The notes beneath the pieces are model-generated. The model ran no database searches. It saw only the letters and a list, made by a program, of their open reading frames with translations, and was not told where the DNA came from. Made by a program: the position numbers and the translations under genes. From a virus (taxonomy: Duplodnaviria; Heunggongvirae; Uroviricota; Caudoviricetes), in the IMG/VR virus record IMGVR_UViG_2713896775_000008: a stretch of DNA of 6,080 nucleotides. One strand, 5' to 3'. Below are positions 1-6,080 of the stretch, piece after piece. The stretch's first letter is position 1. Each line of letters opens with the position of its first letter.

Positions 1-87
1 ATTTCTGATGCTGAATCAATGATGTCTGCCATCTTCCATTAATCCCTGAATTGTTGGTTAATACGCTTGGGGGTAAATGCGAGCAAT

Positions 88-108
88 AAAAAAGGAGCCT
101 GTAGCTCC
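88..108 (-). terminator. putative Rho-independent terminator for the leftward small-ORF transcript
   Basis: On the minus strand a GGAGC-TACAG-GCTCC stem-loop (plus coords 94-108) is followed directly by TTTTTTATT (plus-strand A-run 88-93), 23 nt downstream of the stop of the 131-346 ORF. The stem is short (5 bp, 6 with a G-U pair). Confidence 0.45.
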
Positions 109-130
109 CTGATAATTTTGCTTTTCATGT

Positions 131-346
131 TCATCGTTCCTTAAAGACGCCGTTTAACATGCCGATTGCCAGGCTTAAATGAGTCGGTGTGAATCCCATC
201 AGCGTTACCGTTTCGCGGTGCTTCTTCAGTACGCTACGGCAAATGTCATCGACGTTTTTATCCGGAAACTGCTGTCTGGCTTTTTTGATTTCAGAATTAG
301 CCTGACGGGCAATGCTGCGAAGGGCGTTTTCTTGCTGAGGTGTCAT
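131..346 (-). CDS. small hypothetical prophage protein (71 aa from MTPQQENALRSIARQ...)
   Basis: Open frame on the minus strand ending in TGA at 131-133. I chose the ATG at 346 (GGGG about 9 nt upstream); the ORF track gives an alternative start at 412 (93 aa), only 10 nt after the upstream ORF stop but with no Shine-Dalgarno. Size, orientation and pairing with the 63-aa ORF resemble the small proteins of the lambda exo-xis region, but I cannot verify homology without a search. Confidence 0.45.
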   Translation of the reverse strand: MTPQQENALRSIARQANSEIKKARQQFPDKNVDDICRSVLKKHRETVTLMGFTPTHLSLAIGMLNGVFKER

Positions 347-422
347 TGAACAAGCCCCATGTCGGCAAGCATAAGCACACAGAATATGAAGCCCGCTGCC
401 AGAAAAATGCATTCAGTGGTTG

Positions 423-614
423 TCATACCTGGTCTCTCTCATCTGCTTCTGCTTTCGCCACCATCATTTCCAGCTTTTGTGAAAGGGATGCGGCTAACGT
501 ATGAAATTCTTCGTCTGTTTCTACTGGTATTGGCACAAACCTGACTCCAATTTGAGCGAGGCTATGTGCCATCTCGATACACGTTCTTAACTCAACAGGA
601 GATGCTTTGTGCAT
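423..614 (-). CDS. small hypothetical prophage protein (63 aa, MHKASPVELRTCIEMAHSLAQIG...)
   Basis: Minus-strand ORF of 63 aa with a G-rich stretch (GGGGGG) 4 nt upstream of the ATG, transcribed in tandem with the 131-346 ORF. It is acidic and helical-looking. Possibly a lambda orf63-like exo-xis region protein; unverified. Confidence 0.5.
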   Translation of the reverse strand: MHKASPVELRTCIEMAHSLAQIGVRFVPIPVETDEEFHTLAASLSQKLEMMVAKAEADERDQV

Positions 615-732
615 ACAGCCCCCCGTTTATTATTTATCTCCTCAGCCAGCCGCTGTGCTTTCAGGGGATTTCTGATAACAGAAAGGCCGGGAAATACCCA
701 GCCTCGCTTTGTAACGGAGTAGACGAAAGTGA

Positions 733-957
733 TCGCACCTACCGGAAACAACGCGCGGCGCTCTTTACTCGTTCGTCTATAACGTGGGCGCAGGCAATTT
801 CAGAACATCTACTCTTCTTCGCAAAATAAACCAGGGCGATATCAAGGGCGCATGTGACCAGCTACGTCGCTGGGCATACGCTGGCGGTAAGCAATGGAAA
901 GGCCTGATGACTCGTCGTGAGATTGAGCGTGAGGTCTGTTTGTGGGGGCAACAATGA
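733..957 (+). pseudogene. endolysin (phage lysozyme) 3' remnant, 5' two-thirds missing
   Basis: The frame reads [74 protein letters not shown], which matches from memory the C-terminal ~75 aa of P21-type lambdoid endolysins. An in-frame TGA lies at 730-732 and there is no start or lysozyme-like sequence upstream. The stop TGA (955-957) overlaps the Rz start in ATGA, the classical R-Rz junction. Confidence 0.75.
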
Positions 958-1418
958 GCAGGGTAACCGCGATTATCTCCGCTCTGGTTATCTGCATCAT
1001 CGTCTGCCTGTCATGGGCTGTTAATCATTACCGTGATAACGCCATTACCTACAAAGCCCAGCGCGACAAAAATGCCAGAGAACTGAAGCTGGCGAACGCG
1101 GCAATTACTGACATGCAGATGCGTCAGCGTGATGTTGCTGCGCTCGATGCAAAATACACGAAGGAGTTAGCTGATGCGAAAGCTGAAAATGATGCTCTGC
1201 GTGATGATGTTGCCGCTGGTCGTCGTCGGTTGCACATCAAAGCAGTCTGTCAGTCAGTGCGTGAAGCCACCACCGCCTCCGGCGTGGATAATGCAGCCTC
1301 CCCCCGACTGGCAGACACCGCTGAACGGGATTATTTCACCCTCCGGGAACGACTGGTAATGATGCAGGCCCAACTTGAAGGTGCTCAGCAATACATAACC
1401 GAGCAGTGTTTAAAGTAA
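954..1418 (+). CDS. Rz: Rz i-spanin (inner-membrane spanin subunit)
   Basis: 154-aa product [60 protein letters not shown]..., near-identical over most of its length to lambda Rz as I recall it. It has an N-terminal transmembrane segment and a coiled-coil periplasmic domain. The ATG at 954 overlaps the endolysin remnant stop. Confidence 0.9.
1174..1359 (+). CDS. Rz1: Rz1 o-spanin (outer-membrane lipoprotein), nested in the +1 frame of Rz
   Basis: 61-aa product [61 protein letters not shown] with a lipobox (VVVGC) and proline-rich mature region. A strong AAGGAG Shine-Dalgarno lies at 1161-1166, 7 nt before the ATG. It is wholly embedded in Rz, as in lambda, and corresponds to rzoR-type genes of Rac-like prophages. 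Confidence 0.85.
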
Positions 1419-1439
1419 AATCTTAACTACAATATGATT

Positions 1440-1540
1440 CATTTTGATGATTGTTTCATAAGGAACAGTGAAGTAAGATCTAAGAGGAGTTAAATTTTAT
1501 ACAGTATAATCATAATATTGCAGCAAGGTGGTTATAATTG
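1440..1540 (+). promoter_or_regulatory. AT-rich putative promoter region upstream of trkG
   Basis: AT-rich intergenic tract with two TATAAT hexamers (1505-1510 and 1533-1538) and an AAGGTGG Shine-Dalgarno at 1525-1531. I could not pair either -10 hexamer with a good -35 at 16-18 bp, so the exact promoter is not defined. Confidence 0.3.
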
Positions 1541-1555
1541 AAAGAATATTTAGAT

Positions 1556-3013
1556 ATGAATACATCTCATGTAAGAGTTGTTACTCATATGTGTGGGTTC
1601 CTGGTTTGGCTCTATAGTCTTTCAATGTTGCCACCAATGGTTGTAGCATTGTTTTATAAAGAAAAAAGCCTGTTCGTTTTCTTTATAACTTTCGTTATAT
1701 TTTTTTGCATTGGTGGCGGAGCGTGGTATACAACTAAGAAATCTGGCATTCAATTACGTACCCGTGATGGGTTTATTATAATTGTAATGTTTTGGATTTT
1801 GTTTTCTGTTATTAGTGCATTCCCTTTATGGATTGACTCAGAACTTAATTTAACGTTCATTGATGCTCTGTTTGAAGGGGTTTCTGGAATAACAACAACA
1901 GGAGCAACTGTAATTGATGATGTTAGTTCATTACCTCGGGCATATTTGTACTATCGGTCACAGTTAAATTTTATAGGTGGTTTAGGAGTTATTGTTCTGG
2001 CGGTTGCTGTATTGCCATTATTGGGTATTGGTGGTACAAAGCTTTATCAGTCAGAAATGCCGGGGCCATTTAAGGATGACAAACTCACTCCCCGCCTGGC
2101 CGATACGTCACGGACACTGTGGATAACTTATTCTTTATTAGGTATTGCTTGTATTGTCTGTTATAGACTTGCAGGAATGCCTTTGTTTGATGCTATTTGT
2201 CACGGGATTTCCACAGTTTCGCTTGGTGGTTTCTCAACTCATAGCGAGAGTATCGGATATTTTAATAACTATTTGGTTGAGCTGGTGGCTGGTTCTTTTT
2301 CCCTGCTATCGGCTTTCAACTTCACTCTTTGGTATATTGTTATTAGCAGGAAAACGATAAAACCTTTAATCAGAGATATTGAACTTCGTTTCTTTCTGTT
2401 AATAGCCTTAGGGGTGATCATTGTTACCTCTTTCCAGGTCTGGCATATAGGTATGTATGACTTGCATGGAAGTTTTATTCATTCGTTTTTTCTTGCCAGC
2501 TCCATGCTCACTGATAATGGTTTAGCTACGCAGGATTATGCAAACTGGCCCACGCACACGATAGTGTTTTTGCTGTCGTCAAGTTTCTTTGGGGGATGTA
2601 TAGGTTCAACTTGTGGTGGAATTAAGTCACTTCGATTTCTTATACTTTTCAAACAAAGCAAACACGAGATAAATCAGCTTTCTCATCCCAGAGCGTTGTT
2701 GAGTGTAAATGTAGGAGGGAAGATAGTTACAGATCGTGTAATGAGGTCTGTATGGAGTTTCTTTTTTCTTTATACTCTCTTCACGGTGTTTTTTATACTG
2801 GTGTTAAATGGTATGGGATATGATTTTCTTACATCATTTGCAACAGTGGCTGCATGTATTAATAATATGGGATTAGGTTTTGGGGCTACTGCATCGTCAT
2901 TCGGAGTGCTTAATGACATTGCAAAATATTTAATGTGCATAGCTATGATTCTTGGTCGCCTTGAAATTTATCCTGTTATTATATTGTTTTCAGGTTTTTT
3001 TTGGCGCTCCTAA
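1556..3013 (+). CDS. trkG: Trk-system K+ uptake protein TrkG (TrkH/KtrB family membrane transporter)
   Basis: 485-aa polytopic membrane protein starting MNTSHVRVVTHMCGFLVWLYSLSMLPP..., with repeated glycine-containing selectivity-filter-like segments typical of TrkH-family proteins (e.g. TTTGATV, LGVIVLAVAVLPLLGIGG). It matches E. coli TrkG, which is known to reside in the Rac prophage. GC content is markedly lower than the flanks. An alternative TTG start at 1538 sits 6 nt after the AAGGTGG Shine-Dalgarno and would add 6 aa (MKEYLD). Confidence 0.93.
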   Translation: MNTSHVRVVTHMCGFLVWLYSLSMLPPMVVALFYKEKSLFVFFITFVIFFCIGGGAWYTTKKSGIQLRTRDGFIIIVMFWILFSVISAFPLWIDSELNLTFIDALFEGVSGITTTGATVIDDVSSLPRAYLYYRSQLNFIGGLGVIVLAVAVLPLLGIGGTKLYQSEMPGPFKDDKLTPRLADTSRTLWITYSLLGIACIVCYRLAGMPLFDAICHGISTVSLGGFSTHSESIGYFNNYLVELVAGSFSLLSAFNFTLWYIVISRKTIKPLIRDIELRFFLLIALGVIIVTSFQVWHIGMYDLHGSFIHSFFLASSMLTDNGLATQDYANWPTHTIVFLLSSSFFGGCIGSTCGGIKSLRFLILFKQSKHEINQLSHPRALLSVNVGGKIVTDRVMRSVWSFFFLYTLFTVFFILVLNGMGYDFLTSFATVAACINNMGLGFGATASSFGVLNDIAKYLMCIAMILGRLEIYPVIILFSGFFWRS

Positions 3014-3099
3014 TATATGGCTGATTTATAATTGTGAGTTTAATATTATATTGACTCACTCATTGATCCAATACCTAACTTTACCAGCAACACCTCCGC

Positions 3100-3134
3100 C
3101 CCCAGTAGCACTGGCTGCTGGGGTGCGTTTTATT
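3100..3134 (+). terminator. putative terminator downstream of trkG
   Basis: Imperfect stem CCCCAGTAGC (3100-3109) / GCTGCTGGGG (3114-3123) with loop ACTG and one mismatch, followed after TGCG by TTTTATT (3128-3134). The U-tract is not directly adjacent to the stem. Confidence 0.4.
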
Positions 3135-3150
3135 CATAAAGCAAGGCTGT

Positions 3151-3582
3151 ATGAGCGAGAAATTAAAGATAGTCTATCGCCCATTACAAGAATTGTCACC
3201 GTATGCGCACAACGCCAGGACGCACAGTACTGAGCAGGTGGCACAACTGGTAGAAAGTATTAAGCAATTCGGCTGGACTAATCCGGTGCTGATTGACGAA
3301 AAGGGCGAAATTATTGCGGGTCACGGTCGTGTTATGGCGGCTGAAATGCTCAAAATGGATTCTGTTCCGGTCATTGTTCTGTCTGGCCTGACGGATGAGC
3401 AGAAAAAGGCGTACCGCCTGGCAGATAATCGCCTACCGATGAATGCTGGCTGGGATGAAGATCTGTTGCGGATGGAGCTGTCGGACCTAATCAATGCTGA
3501 TTTTGATGTCTCCCTGACAGGCTTCGGCCCGACAGAAATTGATGAACTGTTGACGGATGTTTTGCCCGGTATCGGGCCTTAA
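3151..3582 (+). CDS. ParB-like nuclease-domain protein (ParB N-terminal/sulfiredoxin fold), possibly a truncated ParB-methyltransferase
   Basis: 143-aa ORF with AAGG 4 nt upstream of the ATG. The N-terminus (KIVYRPLQELSPYAHNARTHS...GEIIAGHGRVMAA) carries the hallmark ParB N-terminal domain motifs seen in standalone ParB-like proteins and in phage ParB-DNA methyltransferase fusions. It ends where the methyltransferase domain would start in such fusions. Confidence 0.75.
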   Translation: MSEKLKIVYRPLQELSPYAHNARTHSTEQVAQLVESIKQFGWTNPVLIDEKGEIIAGHGRVMAAEMLKMDSVPVIVLSGLTDEQKKAYRLADNRLPMNAGWDEDLLRMELSDLINADFDVSLTGFGPTEIDELLTDVLPGIGP

Positions 3583-3585
3583 TTT

Positions 3586-4113
3586 TTACTCTGGTTTTTG
3601 TGGCCATTCAGGATTTGCCGTATCCACACGGCTGACCAGAACACTGTAGCGTTCCCATGCTTCCAGTCGTGTGCGTTCCTCGTCTGTTGCCATATTCAGC
3701 CTGACAGCGCGTTCCAGCGGTTGGATGACTGATTCAGCTTCGGAAAGCAATGCGGCCTTTTGTGATTCGGCCTGTTGTTGTTGCTCGTCTGCCGTATAAA
3801 TCCGTTTAACCACAGCTCCGTCCCTAAACATCCACTTACTGGAATCATCAGCGCAGCGGTTGGCTGTAATATCTGGAACCTCAACGACGCTATAACCTTC
3901 AGGGTTAAGCGTGGAGGCATCTTTGGTGATGGCGACAATAATATTATTTGCATCGTAAACAATCTTTATTGTGTCTGGCTGAAAGTTTTTCACTTCCTCA
4001 TACCAGTTTTTTCCGTCTTCGGACCATAACCAGATAACATCAAAATTCTTTGTTAGCTGATATTGTTCTTTTGTTTTTGGATTTCCAGACTTAATATTTT
4101 TTAAATGCTGCAT
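3586..4113 (-). CDS. tfa: phage tail fibre assembly protein (Tfa chaperone)
   Basis: 175-aa minus-strand ORF. Its C-terminal region ([30 protein letters not shown]) matches the conserved C-terminus of lambda/e14/Rac Tfa proteins as I recall them. An AGGTG Shine-Dalgarno sits 6 nt upstream of the ATG, and the gene starts 3 nt after the tail-fibre cassette stop, the usual stf-tfa coupling. Confidence 0.88.
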
Positions 4114-4116
4114 AAA

Positions 4117-5121
4117 TTACACCTGTACGACGTTATACCATGTGCCATTGATGTATTTTTGTATTGGTCTGAATACTGCCGGATCATCGCCATCAACTGC
4201 ACCGATAATGCCAAGCCCCGTAATTGCATGACCTGATTTCTCATACATCACGCCTTTTTGCATAGTCTGAACAACACGTGTACCAAGTCGGACATCTCTC
4301 ACATAACGTGAGTCAAAATTACCATAATTGCCGGGAATAACTTGCGCACCGCAAAGCCAGTTGCCATTGTTGTCCATGTACGCCTGACCATCGGTGCCAT
4401 TGGCTGTCCTTGAGTTATTAATCATGTAGATGCCAAATTGCTTATTCCCCAGTCCACCAATCATAAATTTGCGATCAGCGTGGTCCTGACGAAGTAATGC
4501 CTGCGCACCATCGGTGGATACCGCATTGCGTCCCAAAATAACATTCTGGTCACGCATATGAATCCACATGCCGGTACTACTGTTAATTGCAAAACGGTTT
4601 GCAAATATATCCCCTGTAACATCAAGACCATGCCCCATGCTTATCCGACCAGTTCTGAGATTAAGCGTAAAGGGGCGTAGTGGCCCTATATCACCATTTT
4701 CTCCCTCATTCTCTCGTGTAGGGATGATATGCAGGCATTCTTCAGAACGACGAAAAATAGCACCAAAAGATGAATTAAATATCCTCAGTGCATTGACTGT
4801 CGATATTTTTACTTCACTGCTGAAAAGGGCTTTAACAAGGACAGACAAAGCATCCCATTTAAGAGTCATCAGGTCTTTTGTTGTGGTGCTCTGGCGGCTT
4901 CTCCATTTGAAATATTCATTGCCGTTGTCGCCTGTTTCAAACCACATGTATGAATCAGTGTCGCTGTCGGCATTATTTTTAAAACCAATCTTTGCCCAGT
5001 CAGTATTTCTAATCCAGGCAAGGATTGAGTCGTTTTCAAAAGTAAGCCCACCGGACAAGGTATCGCCATTCTTTTGCACGGCGTTCCTGGCCCTGTTTAC
5101 CGTTTCCTGTAAACCGAGGTT
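4117..5121 (-). CDS. stf: tail fibre C-terminal (receptor-binding) variable cassette, partial and start-less
   Basis: Minus-strand open frame of about 334 codons with tail-fibre-like composition (Gly/Asn/Thr-rich, ...GDTLSGGLTFENDSILAWIRN...GTWYNVVQV), immediately followed by tfa. The frame is open from just after an in-frame TAA at 5122-5124 inside the crossover site. It has no ATG or Shine-Dalgarno; the ORF-track start at 5079 is an internal GTG. This is the expected structure of the silent variable half of an invertible tail-fibre segment. Confidence 0.78.
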   Translation of the reverse strand, partial: NLGLQETVNRARNAVQKNGDTLSGGLTFENDSILAWIRNTDWAKIGFKNNADSDTDSYMWFETGDNGNEYFKWRSRQSTTTKDLMTLKWDALSVLVKALFSSEVKISTVNALRIFNSSFGAIFRRSEECLHIIPTRENEGENGDIGPLRPFTLNLRTGRISMGHGLDVTGDIFANRFAINSSTGMWIHMRDQNVILGRNAVSTDGAQALLRQDHADRKFMIGGLGNKQFGIYMINNSRTANGTDGQAYMDNNGNWLCGAQVIPGNYGNFDSRYVRDVRLGTRVVQTMQKGVMYEKSGHAITGLGIIGAVDGDDPAVFRPIQKYINGTWYNVVQV

Positions 5122-5129
5122 TTAGATAA
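5104..5129. other. gix/pix/cix-type 26-bp crossover site for a serine DNA invertase
   Basis: TTCCTGTAAACC-GA-GGTTTTAGATAA: two 12-bp half-sites in imperfect inverted symmetry around a central GA dinucleotide. From memory it differs from the phage Mu gix site at about one position. It lies 55 bp upstream of the invertase start and at the 5' boundary of the tail-fibre cassette. Confidence 0.75.
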
Positions 5130-5183
5130 TGGCGGTTTCTGGCCTGCATGGCATGATTTGTGCTTTTGGACGGGAGATTCAGC

Positions 5184-5292
5184 GTGCTGATTGGCTATGT
5201 AAGGGTATCAACAAATGACCAGAATACAGACCTGCAACGAAACGCTCTTGTTTGTGCAGGATGTGAACAAATATTTGAAGATAAATTAAGCG
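5184..5292 (+). pseudogene. pin: Gin/Pin/Cin/Hin-family serine DNA invertase, N-terminal 37 codons only (interrupted by IS26)
   Basis: The frame from GTG 5184 reads [37 protein letters not shown], the diagnostic serine-recombinase N-terminus with catalytic Ser in the YVRVSTxDQ motif, matching Pin/Gin as I recall them. The reading frame runs straight into the IS26 inverted repeat at 5293. Alternative in-frame starts are GTG 5160 and TTG 5166. Confidence 0.85.
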
Positions 5293-5306
5293 GGCACTGT
5301 TGCAAA
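5293..5306 (+). repeat. IS26 left terminal inverted repeat (14 bp)
   Basis: Exact GGCACTGTTGCAAA. The 8 bp immediately outside (ATTAAGCG, 5285-5292) would be the target-site duplication if this was a simple insertion, but the right flank is not in the window. Confidence 0.85.
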
Positions 5307-5355
5307 TAGTCGGTGGTGATAAACTTATCATCCCCTTTTGCTGATGGAGCTGCAC

Positions 5356-6060
5356 ATGAACCCATTCAAAGGCCGGCATTTTCAGCGTGACATCATTCTG
5401 TGGGCCGTACGCTGGTACTGCAAATACGGCATCAGTTACCGTGAGCTGCAGGAGATGCTGGCTGAACGCGGAGTGAATGTCGATCACTCCACGATTTACC
5501 GCTGGGTTCAGCGTTATGCGCCTGAAATGGAAAAACGGCTGCGCTGGTACTGGCGTAACCCTTCCGATCTTTGCCCGTGGCACATGGATGAAACCTACGT
5601 GAAGGTCAATGGCCGCTGGGCGTATCTGTACCGGGCCGTCGACAGCCGGGGCCGCACTGTCGATTTTTATCTCTCCTCCCGTCGTAACAGCAAAGCTGCA
5701 TACCGGTTTCTGGGTAAAATCCTCAACAACGTGAAGAAGTGGCAGATCCCGCGATTCATCAACACGGATAAAGCGCCCGCCTATGGTCGCGCGCTTGCTC
5801 TGCTCAAACGCGAAGGCCGGTGCCCGTCTGACGTTGAACACCGACAGATTAAGTACCGGAACAACGTGATTGAATGCGATCATGGCAAACTGAAACGGAT
5901 AATCGGCGCCACGCTGGGATTTAAATCCATGAAGACGGCTTACGCCACCATCAAAGGTATTGAGGTGATGCGTGCACTACGCAAAGGCCAGGCCTCAGCA
6001 TTTTATTATGGTGATCCCCTGGGCGAAATGCGCCTGGTAAGCAGAGTTTTTGAAATGTAA
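5356..6060 (+). CDS. tnpA: IS26 transposase Tnp26 (DDE transposase, IS6 family)
   Basis: 234-aa ORF MNPFKGRHFQRDIILWAVRWYCKYGISYRELQEMLAERGVNVDHSTIYRWVQRYAPEMEKRLRW...LVSRVFEM, recognised as the IS26 transposase. The ORF-track start at 5338 adds 6 unlikely residues; the ATG at 5356 gives the canonical length. Confidence 0.95.
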   Translation: MNPFKGRHFQRDIILWAVRWYCKYGISYRELQEMLAERGVNVDHSTIYRWVQRYAPEMEKRLRWYWRNPSDLCPWHMDETYVKVNGRWAYLYRAVDSRGRTVDFYLSSRRNSKAAYRFLGKILNNVKKWQIPRFINTDKAPAYGRALALLKREGRCPSDVEHRQIKYRNNVIECDHGKLKRIIGATLGFKSMKTAYATIKGIEVMRALRKGQASAFYYGDPLGEMRLVSRVFEM

Positions 6061-6080
6061 GGCCTTTGAATAAGACAAAA

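Follow-up and report, generated by a model that had tools for sequence, protein, structure and literature searches.

A probably inert remnant of a Mu G-type invertible host-range segment: the invertase-proximal half, from the stf end of a lambdoid prophage

The window analysed here, a 6,080 nucleotide stretch of phage DNA taken at its full length, carries a Rac-type trkG/ParB block followed by the parts of a tail fibre switch. In brief, these are a tail fibre chaperone gene (tfaB), the C-terminal part of a tail fibre gene (cassette B), one crossover site and the stump of an invertase gene, which ends at an IS26 element. Every part could be identified directly.

The tfaB gene (3586-4113, minus strand) is an intact tail fibre assembly (chaperone) gene of the Mu U type, encoding 175 amino acids. 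Its product matches the Pfam family Caudo_TAP (PF02413) with 127.5 bits (cut-off 22.1, E 5e-37), and its residues 1-175 align to residues 1-175 of Mu U (PDB 5YVQ_B, E 1e-106), with 93% identity across all 175 residues. Read from the sequence, tfaB starts with an ATG that has its own AGGTG Shine-Dalgarno sequence. Its sequence is the same as that of tfa in the intact YJ6 prophage. No promoter was identifiable for tfaB, although the gene itself is intact.

Cassette B (4117-5121, minus strand) encodes the C-terminal 334 codons of a Mu S-type tail fibre and has no ATG of its own. The open frame spans 4120-5121 and ends with a stop codon at 4117-4119. Upstream, it is closed by a TAA at 5122-5124, located within the outer half of the crossover site. 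Residues 1-332 match residues 169-502 of Mu S (PDB 5YVQ_A, E 3e-149) with 70% protein identity, and the first aligned residue, 169, is exactly the annotated boundary of the G segment. At the DNA level the cassette is 77-91% identical to the fibre genes of P2, P1, P7, D108 and SfMu. The initial annotation stated that the cassette has neither a start codon nor a ribosome binding site. This was too strict, since there is an in-frame GTG at 5077-5079 with AGGA ahead of it. This GTG is unlikely, though possible, as the cassette's own start: a promoter scan gave no promoter-like site on the minus strand upstream of cassette B, and RefSeq lists the cassette as "phage tail protein, incomplete, missing N-terminus", a pseudogene. 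Over 3400-5450 the scan returned one consensus match, where 4.2 are expected.

The crossover site (5104-5129, plus strand) is a single 26 bp gix-type site, TTCCTGTAAACCGAGGTTTTAGATAA, that agrees with both Mu gixL and Mu gixR at 25 of 26 positions. It consists of 12 bp half-sites around a 2 bp core, TTCCTGTAAACC-GA-GGTTTTAGATAA; sites of this type read NNNNNNNAAACC-GA-GGTTTNNNNNNN. Of the two half-sites, the inner is part of the cassette, and the outer lies on the pin side. With up to 3 mismatches allowed, the site occurs once in the window and in none of 200 shuffled sequences. The same sequence is the pin-proximal site of two-site segments in four related loci (L009, L010, L012 and L013), where it pairs with an inverted partner, TTCCTGTAAACCGAGGTATTCGATAA. 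The next best matches in the window, 17/26 and 16/26, are at chance level (0.2 expected per window). The heptamer ACCTCGG at 1933-1939, noted previously as a partial core match, is real and lies below 16/26, and the view that the window has no second site stands. At megablast sensitivity the same is true of the replicons that carry the exact window sequence. A partner site elsewhere in the same prophage had been named beforehand as speaking against an orphaned half, and none was found: a megablast search, based on a 28 nt exact word that a strongly diverged site would escape, found a single place matching 3540-5292 on each of them.

Inversion by the Gin/Hin family needs two sites on one supercoiled molecule together with Fis and the enhancer, and the outcome is exclusively intramolecular (PMC3798978). 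In the Hin system approximately 100 bp separate hixL from the proximal Fis site (PMC3798978). By this distance a Fis-bound enhancer, expected within the 5' region of the invertase gene, would fall near 5217-5290 in the window, abutting the IS26 junction at 5293.

The invertase gene is reduced to a stump of 37 codons (5184-5293, plus strand) of a serine invertase of the Pin/Gin family. We place its start at the GTG at 5184, not at the mechanical ORF start at 5160. Aligned with intact invertases of 195 and 184 amino acids (the latter PinE), the stump keeps the catalytic serine motif YVRVSTNDQ, while the remaining catalytic domain and the DNA binding domain are missing; of the 145 positions in the Pfam Resolvase profile, only 2-44 are matched. 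The invertase is thus dead, and no inversion can be driven in cis, even given a partner site. Relatives without IS26 carry an older stump, pin', of 64 codons. The left end and transposase gene of IS26 occupy 5293-6080 (plus strand), cut by the window end, with the right end outside the window. The assignment comes from Pfam (DDE_Tnp_IS240, E 2e-48) and from RefSeq, which has an IS6-like element IS26 family transposase (WP_001067855.1) at the same position. The repeat GGCACTGTTGCAAA at 5293-5306, read from the sequence, is recognisable as the terminal repeat of IS26. Strain E2 is an example of the same locus with no IS26 in it.

On the other side of tfaB lies a truncated, ynaK-type ParB-like ORF (3151-3582, plus strand; Pfam ParB_N, 30.7 bits). 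It encodes 143 amino acids, compared to 263 in strain PK8568 (L002), and the two diverge after codon 140. The last 3 codons and the stop are foreign and stem from the far side of a deletion junction at 3564-3577, GCCCGGTA, which has an imperfect 8 bp microhomology at 3564-3571 and was mapped by aligning the window with both flanks in L002 and with the locus of strain 2018-02-2CC (L009). BLAST places window positions 740-3571 and 3564-5293 on L002 with breakpoints at 9572 and 10396. The junction lies inside a G+C hairpin, GCCCGGTATCGGGC, which is terminator-like and in intact relatives is found between the convergent genes tfaA and tfaB. The deletion, which ends at 3564-3571, fused the ParB-like gene at codon 140 with this hairpin and took away tfaA and cassette A. 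The initial annotation had noticed that a ParB-like gene and trkG stand in place of the opposing half of the segment; the ParB-like gene is moreover itself truncated by the same deletion.

We found the exact junction in 21 complete records, each with one matching place on the replicon. That the single-cassette arrangement could be original, and never invertible, is suggested by the stops of the ParB-like ORF and of tfa, which are 3 bp apart and could resemble those of a natural convergent pair. Yet the end of the ParB-like ORF comes from across a mapped junction, and full segments are known that have both sites and the identical cassette. Nor is the junction an assembly artefact, since it recurs in 21 independent complete assemblies. 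We give practically no credence to either of these explanations.

The difference between the window and the L002 form is exactly 823 bp. A complete relative gives no exact size for the deletion, because the attLambda prophage of strain C2 lacks the trkG/ParB block; only the L002 difference is exact. The direct precursor could be of the L002 type, with a deletion of 823 bp, or a complete prophage, with a deletion of more than 25 kb. The remnant is a chimera of Rac and attLambda parts, as seen from the missing trkG/ParB block in the complete C2 prophage.

Complete segments were found in strains C2 (NZ_CP010117.1), YJ6 (NZ_AP023235.1) and 2018-02-2CC (NZ_AP027873.1). C2 and YJ6 (L012 and L013) harbor complete lambdoid prophages at attLambda, with the gene order J, lom, Stf (constant part and cassette A) and tfaA, followed by tfaB and cassette B on the opposite strand, the site and pin'. 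The 3.05 kb segment is complete, with both sites and an intact Stf of 945 amino acids, and is in the orientation of the window; window positions 3564-5293 are 99.9% identical to it. Taking all three strains together, tfaB, cassette B, the site and the 5' end of pin are 99.6-99.9% identical to the window. They differ from it in keeping J, lom, the constant part of Stf, the outer site, cassette A and tfaA, in having the 64 codon pin' without IS26, and in having head and tail genes where the window has the Rac-type trkG/ParB block. The constant part that the intact relatives have comes from a side tail fibre (Stf) of the lambda type and spans about 625 residues; it is not the N-terminus of the S protein of Mu or P1. 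Two further loci have decayed in other ways. L002 has cassette B, the site and pin' and keeps the 3' part of tfaA, and L003 has the same three elements with a fragment of J fused to a truncated tfaB.

The prophage of strain 2018-02-2CC is a precise inversion isomer. Its segment of 3,087 bp is collinear, both flanks are reversed, and the breakpoints lie within the sites. Here cassette B reads through the site in frame and makes up residues 626-959 of an uninterrupted Stf ORF of 959 amino acids; RefSeq splits this intact gene. The complete segment is thus seen directly in both orientations. The complete segments, the isomer and the junction in related genomes bear out the initial annotation in describing an orphaned invertase-proximal half. 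What was described as lost, namely the constant region, a partner site and an opposing pair of cassette and tfa, is missing from the window, and the relatives have all of it. The cassette was also correctly said to need fusion to a constant region that is missing from the window: its frame is shut by the TAA at 5122-5124, and the relatives fuse it in frame.

Among prophages that share the same dead 64 codon pin', the intact segment occurs in either orientation. This makes inversion in trans testable.

It could be argued that the switch in the window is still live, with a degenerate partner site at 3064-3089 or elsewhere on the replicon and an invertase acting in trans that flips the DNA in between. 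Proposed sources of such an enzyme are e14 Pin, P1 Cin, Mu Gin or a P2-like Pin in another prophage. The two isomers with a dead pin' are compatible with flipping in trans, and the spacer between trkG and ynaK does contain an inverted 17/26 match to the site at 3064-3089 (minus strand; 18/26 to the Stf-proximal variant). However, chance alone would give 0.2 matches of at least 17/26 per window, the core of this pseudo-site is TA, not GA, the inner ACC is altered, and the same sequence is found in the Rac prophage of E. coli K-12, where no cassette is adjacent. A query with a synthetic inversion junction found none among 5,426 genomes that covered the predicted junction, the replicons with the exact locus gave no second match to 3540-5292, and the enzyme family is limited to two sites on the same molecule (PMC3798978). 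A live switch thus seems extremely unlikely, and we do not accept 3064-3089 as a second site.

Among known systems, the G segment of phage Mu is the nearest. The site, Tfa and the cassette resemble gix, U and S as given above, with cassette B corresponding to S 169-504, and the order tfa, cassette, site, invertase is that of U'-S'-gix-gin in Mu. The DNA identity is 80% to Mu, 85-87% to SfMu and D108 and 91% to PhiR68_1 and P88. Unlike the Mu segment, the window has one half only, without a second site, the constant part of S and the opposing pair, and its invertase is a stump. Furthermore, the constant part in relatives is the lambda-type Stf of about 625 residues, compared to the 168 residue N-terminus of Mu S, and the window derives from a lambdoid prophage, whereas Mu is a transposable phage.

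The C segments of P1 and P7 (Sv-U/U'-Sv', with cix and cin) are 84-88% identical in DNA over tfa and the cassette, and the annotation of the region that matches is the invertible C segment, with the variable part of S and U. These are complete two-site switches with an intact cin in phage-plasmids, and their constant part is that of P1 S.

The P segment of e14 (stfP-tfaP/tfaE-stfE, with pinE) is likewise an invertible tail fibre segment stranded in a defective prophage, in E. coli K-12. We compared the gene orders, as the initial annotation had proposed, and that of e14 matches: stf, tfa, then tfa and stf' on the opposite strand, and pin. The N-termini of the invertases are 88% identical over the first 37 residues. 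On the other hand, PinE is full-length and neither site has been lost from e14. Compared with the window, 8-9 of 26 positions differ in these sites, whose core is AA. The cassettes and tfa genes of e14 have no DNA similarity to the window; only the 5' end of pin matches (78%). The Mu-type segments are much closer, and e14 is not the closest relative. The earlier assignment to a type comprising Mu G, P1 C and e14 P is right as to type, with Mu G and not e14 as the nearest member.

The left part of the window resembles the K-12 Rac prophage (rzpR-trkG-ynaK ... stfR-tfaR-pinR). Positions 974-3404 are 99.3% identical to rzpR-trkG-ynaK, and Rac too is deletion-ridden and has a truncated ParB-like ynaK and an invertase family gene next to tail fibre genes. 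It differs in having full stfR and tfaR, no invertible segment or gix-type site, and a ynaK that is cut earlier, at 87 amino acids.

Based on these observations, we suggest, with a probability of roughly 92%, that positions 3586-5292 are what is left of an invertible host-range segment of the Mu G type, namely its invertase-proximal half, now inert and derived from the stf end of a lambdoid prophage. No observation speaks against this reading. The locus represents ordinary decay inside an E. coli prophage, of an already known kind, and no new system. With a site that lacks a partner, a dead recombinase, and a cassette that has no start or promoter and a stop upstream, the switch would neither flip nor express the cassette.

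We infer the following order of events, with the biochemical mechanism taken from the literature on Mu and Hin. In the ancestor, a serine invertase of the Gin/Pin family and host Fis would have flipped the 3.05 kb segment between two inverted 26 bp sites. The orientation would have set which cassette, A or B, was joined in frame to the constant part of approximately 625 codons of Stf, and the fused cassette would have been co-transcribed with the matching chaperone gene, tfaA or tfaB. In the lineage of the window, cassette B was probably left in the OFF position, beside the invertase gene. The deletion that begins after codon 140 in the ParB-like gene and ends at the tfaA/tfaB hairpin would then have removed the packaging, head and tail genes, or their remains. 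Lost with them would be cassette A, tfaA, the outer site and the constant region of Stf. By then the invertase gene presumably had only 64 codons left, and IS26 later cut it to 37. The remnant has previously been called a molecular fossil. It is indeed a leftover half, but a young one: judging from the sequences, it arose by deletion and IS insertion only, and decay by point mutations is absent. Cassette B differs from intact copies by 0-1 nucleotides, and by none from those of C2 and YJ6, which allows no inference on selection.

An alternative explanation is that cassette and tfa are retained through being expressed and useful to the host or the plasmid, from an IS26 hybrid promoter or a read-through promoter and the GTG at 5077-5079, possibly as a truncated receptor binding fragment plus chaperone. 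Neither tfaB nor cassette B has a disabling mutation, tfaB has a Shine-Dalgarno sequence and an ATG, the GTG of the cassette is preceded by AGGA, and plasmids have brought the locus into Klebsiella and Enterobacter. The ends of IS26 can provide an outward-facing -35 element, and the terminal repeat, as read from the sequence, has an outward TTGCAA followed 16 nt on by TATCTT. Against this, zero differences from intact prophages leave no time for selection, and the intactness of tfaB and cassette B is thus uninformative. The putative hybrid promoter scores 8/12 only and was not among the hits of the promoter scan, and since the locus is also known without IS26, as in strain E2, we reject this promoter. 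A fibre tip without the N-terminal attachment part of Stf has no virion to be attached to, with all head and tail genes gone, and the spread on plasmids is explained by hitch-hiking in an IS26-bounded segment. Retention by usefulness is therefore very unlikely. Low-level expression of a truncated fibre tip and Tfa is possible, given the GTG at 5077-5079 and the outward -35 of IS26.

We also considered whether the orphan half, with its undamaged receptor binding cassette and chaperone of the Mu S/U type, is a mobile spare part and no dead end. In a related reading, the two-site segments would still be flipped in trans by foreign invertases of the Gin family, despite having only a 64 codon stump of pin. 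The flanks of cassette and tfa, that is a 42 bp conserved site region and the 3' end of tfa, are common to many tail fibre genes of the Mu, P1, P2 and lambda types, and conjugative plasmids of E. coli, Klebsiella and Enterobacter carry the locus within segments bounded by IS26. A phage that infects such a cell, or already resides there, could gain the cassette by homologous recombination, or by site-specific recombination following cointegration. We regard this as speculative and unlikely; if true, plasmids would be vectors of phage host-range modules across genera.

The biological novelty is small, and the value of the locus lies in being a clean, fully reconstructed case of a phase-variable host-range switch that decays in a prophage. 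The route of decay would be that one orientation is frozen, the outer site and the expressed half are lost in a deletion associated with microhomology, and the invertase suffers two truncations. For annotation, the 143 amino acid "ParB/Srx protein" is a deletion chimera and the "phage tail protein" a cassette without a start. The locus is also a marker for tracing a 9.4 kb E. coli prophage remnant that was moved by IS26 onto plasmids in Klebsiella and Enterobacter.

The locus at 3586-5292 is the remnant of a functional invertible tail fibre switch, and the evidence for this is direct. The parts of the window were identified by ORF listing and by Pfam and PDB comparisons. In brief, lambdoid early-left genes (1-751, minus strand) are followed on the plus strand by a 5'-truncated endolysin gene (739-957), Rz with embedded Rz1 (954-1418), trkG (1556-3013) and a ParB-like ORF (3151-3582). 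The minus strand then encodes tfa (3586-4113) and a start-less tail fibre C-terminal cassette (4120-5121), and a single 26-bp crossover site (5104-5129), a 37-codon invertase stump (5184-5293) and IS26 (from 5293) follow on the plus strand. The chromosome of E. coli TC24 is 100% identical across all 6,080 bases, and plasmid pABWA45_1 differs by one mismatch and one gap; trkG is frameshifted in pABWA45_1 but lacks that frameshift in the window. An Rz1-type lipoprotein ORF (1174-1359, plus strand) lies out of frame inside the Rz gene, comparable to rzoR/rzpR of Rac.

The initial annotation described 3586-5292 correctly, as its parts could be matched. All 175 residues of the tfa product align with Mu U (PDB 5YVQ_B; E 1e-106, 93% identity), and the cassette product resembles residues 169-502 of Mu S (PDB 5YVQ_A; E 3e-149, 70% identity), starting at the G-segment boundary residue marked in the Mu record. 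A TAA (5122-5124) inside the outer half-site closes the cassette frame one codon upstream of this start. The cassette was described as start-less, but a start codon is not literally absent, since an in-frame GTG (5077-5079) is preceded by AGGA. The invertase start is corrected to 5184. RefSeq already annotates the locus as incomplete genes. The crossover site, TTCCTGTAAACCGAGGTTTTAGATAA, differs from either Mu gix site by a single base and occurs only once in the window (0 occurrences in 200 shuffles). The next best matches in the window, 17/26 and 16/26, agree with the earlier statement that it holds no second site; 0.2 matches of at least 17/26 are expected per window by chance.

The Mu G segment, with 25 of 26 site positions shared and the protein identities given for Tfa and the cassette, is the nearest characterized system. 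The related P1/P7 C segments and P2 H/G fibres have 77-91% DNA identity with the locus. The e14 element is more distant than Mu G; its sites have 8-9 mismatches in 26 positions, and its match at the DNA level is limited to the 5' end of pin. The reading as a half segment of the e14, Mu and P1 type is supported, with Mu rather than e14 as first comparator. Of six features of a functional switch, four are missing (two sites, an intact invertase, the constant region and two cassette pairs) and the crossover site sequence is present; the sixth is the enhancer.

To place the locus in context, 5,426 complete E. coli genomes were searched, and complete precursors were found. In strains C2 and YJ6 attLambda is occupied by a complete lambdoid prophage. 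At the end of its late region lie J, lom, the gene for a 945-aa side tail fibre (Stf) and tfaA; tfaB and cassette B come next, encoded on the other strand, and then a crossover site identical to that of the window and a 64-codon invertase stump. The window keeps the B pair; 3564-5293 matches these prophages at 99.9%, and the cassette shows 0 nucleotide differences. Because of this perfect identity, the intactness of the cassette is uninformative on selection. The second site, TTCCTGTAAACCGAGGTATTCGATAA, is inverted, lies inside stf and is 3,053 bp from the first. Strain 2018-02-2CC represents the inversion isomer: its 3,087-bp interval from site to site runs collinear with C2, both flanks are reversed, and the breakpoints lie within the sites. 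Here cassette B is read across the site and supplies residues 626-959 of a 959-aa Stf whose frame is uninterrupted. From this and the complete C2/YJ6 segments it follows that the window cassette is a genuine alternative C-terminus for a Stf of the lambda type, caught OFF.

In RefSeq the 959-aa ORF (10532-13411, minus strand, of L009, the 2018-02-2CC locus) is split at the invertible junction, by an annotation artefact, into a 'missing C-terminus' pseudogene and a CDS of 276 aa named 'phage tail protein'. AttLambda prophages with the same 64-codon stump and a common downstream junction (99.4% over 973 bp) carry the complete 3.05-kb segment in both orientations (L009 8466-11544 and L013 7488-10566, relatives of 3564-5293). 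Of the two junctions, pin-cassette A is found in 135 genomes and pin-cassette B in 225. Two isomers beside one dead stump suggest that another Gin-family invertase flips the segment in trans or that the stump has spread via homologous recombination.

The deletion that orphaned the half could be mapped. Strain PK8568 (locus L002) has 823 bp that are missing from the window: the alignment of 740-3571 ends at L002 9572, and that of 3564-5293 starts at L002 10396. In the alignment the junction falls on an imperfect 8-bp microhomology (left, GCCCGGTA; right, GCCCGCTA). It is located in the left arm of a G+C hairpin, which in intact copies stands between the convergent genes tfaA and tfaB. The ParB-like ORF has 263 aa in L002; the window copy departs from it beyond codon 140 and has its stop three codons later. 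The ParB-like gene of the initial annotation is thus present, but is itself truncated, and since it ends at the deletion junction only 3 bp separate its stop codon from that of tfa. L002 retains the 3' 369 bp of tfaA, and in ETEC O6:H16 strains (L003) a J fragment is fused to a 3'-truncated tfaB. These two are distinct deletions, each of which eliminated the outer site; cassette B, the crossover site beside it and the truncated invertase gene (pin') were retained.

Among complete records, 13 chromosomes and 8 plasmids (21 in all) share the exact window junction. A megablast search found no second place matching 3540-5292 on any record that matches the window across the IS26 junction, TC24 included, so that at this sensitivity these replicons hold no similar partner site. 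Together with the precursors, the inversion isomer and the mapped junction, this supports the reading that the half is orphaned and its partner site gone.

A degenerate inverted sequence in the trkG-ynaK spacer (3064-3089, minus strand) matches the crossover site at 17/26 and its Stf-proximal variant at 18/26. That it serves as partner for inversion is extremely unlikely, as this match is at chance level, its core is TA, it is also found in K-12 Rac (L008 5291-5316) and a synthetic inversion-junction query was covered by 0 of the 5,426 genomes; we rejected it. Autonomous expression of the cassette and tfa is also very unlikely: the minus strand upstream of the cassette has no promoter-like site, and a candidate IS26-hybrid promoter matches only 8 of 12 consensus positions.

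In relatives without IS26 the homology of the 64-codon stump to an intact 195-aa invertase stops at approximately nucleotide 191, followed by a tfa 3' remnant; in the window IS26 shortens the stump further, to 37 codons. Both stumps have lost most of the catalytic domain and the entire DNA-binding domain. Inversion by Hin requires two sites on one supercoiled molecule and a Fis-bound enhancer approximately 100 bp from one site, and only intramolecular products result (PMC3798978). Having a single site and no enzyme, the locus is predicted to be unable to flip.

Strain S43 has IS26 at the same stump junction in opposite orientation. Downstream of IS26 we found a Tn3-family transposase fragment and plasmid genes instead of the remainder of pin (window 5293-6080; comparison loci L001 11294-12154 and L005/L006 14294-15113), which points to IS26-mediated rearrangement after insertion. 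At the Rac attachment site of PK8568 (L002 12016-13021), the same block of cassette B, the site and the 64-codon pin' adjoins a tfaR 3' remnant of 96 bp, beyond which a full-length pinR is encoded on the other strand, so that two invertase family genes or remnants are neighbours. The same pin'/tfa-remnant junction is found at attLambda.

The prophage remnant is a chimera of Rac and an attLambda prophage (739-3404). Positions 974-3404 are 99.3% identical to rzpR-rzoR-trkG-ynaK of K-12 Rac; in the complete attLambda prophage of C2 the Rz-to-terminase interval is occupied by KilA-N and DUF1398 genes and lacks trkG/ParB. Another deletion, with its junction at approximately 740, joins a DUF1317 early gene to the 5'-truncated endolysin gene.

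A 9,375-bp remnant, from the attL side of int to nucleotide 110 of pin' (L005 4919-14294, L006 4920-14294, L004 1920-11294), is 99.96% identical between the E2 chromosome (attLambda, beside ybhC) and IS26-flanked plasmid copies, where int adjoins Dps/ArsR/FAD-oxidoreductase genes. The window-type locus with IS26 is also present on Klebsiella michiganensis and K. quasipneumoniae plasmids, and on an Enterobacter kobei plasmid the locus extends as far as the IS26 junction. The TC24 chromosome appears to contain an integrated plasmid-like block. Through IS26 the remnant has moved onto plasmids that occur in E. coli, Klebsiella and Enterobacter. The locus at 3586-5292 is an ordinary part, decayed recently, of a type of system that is well known.
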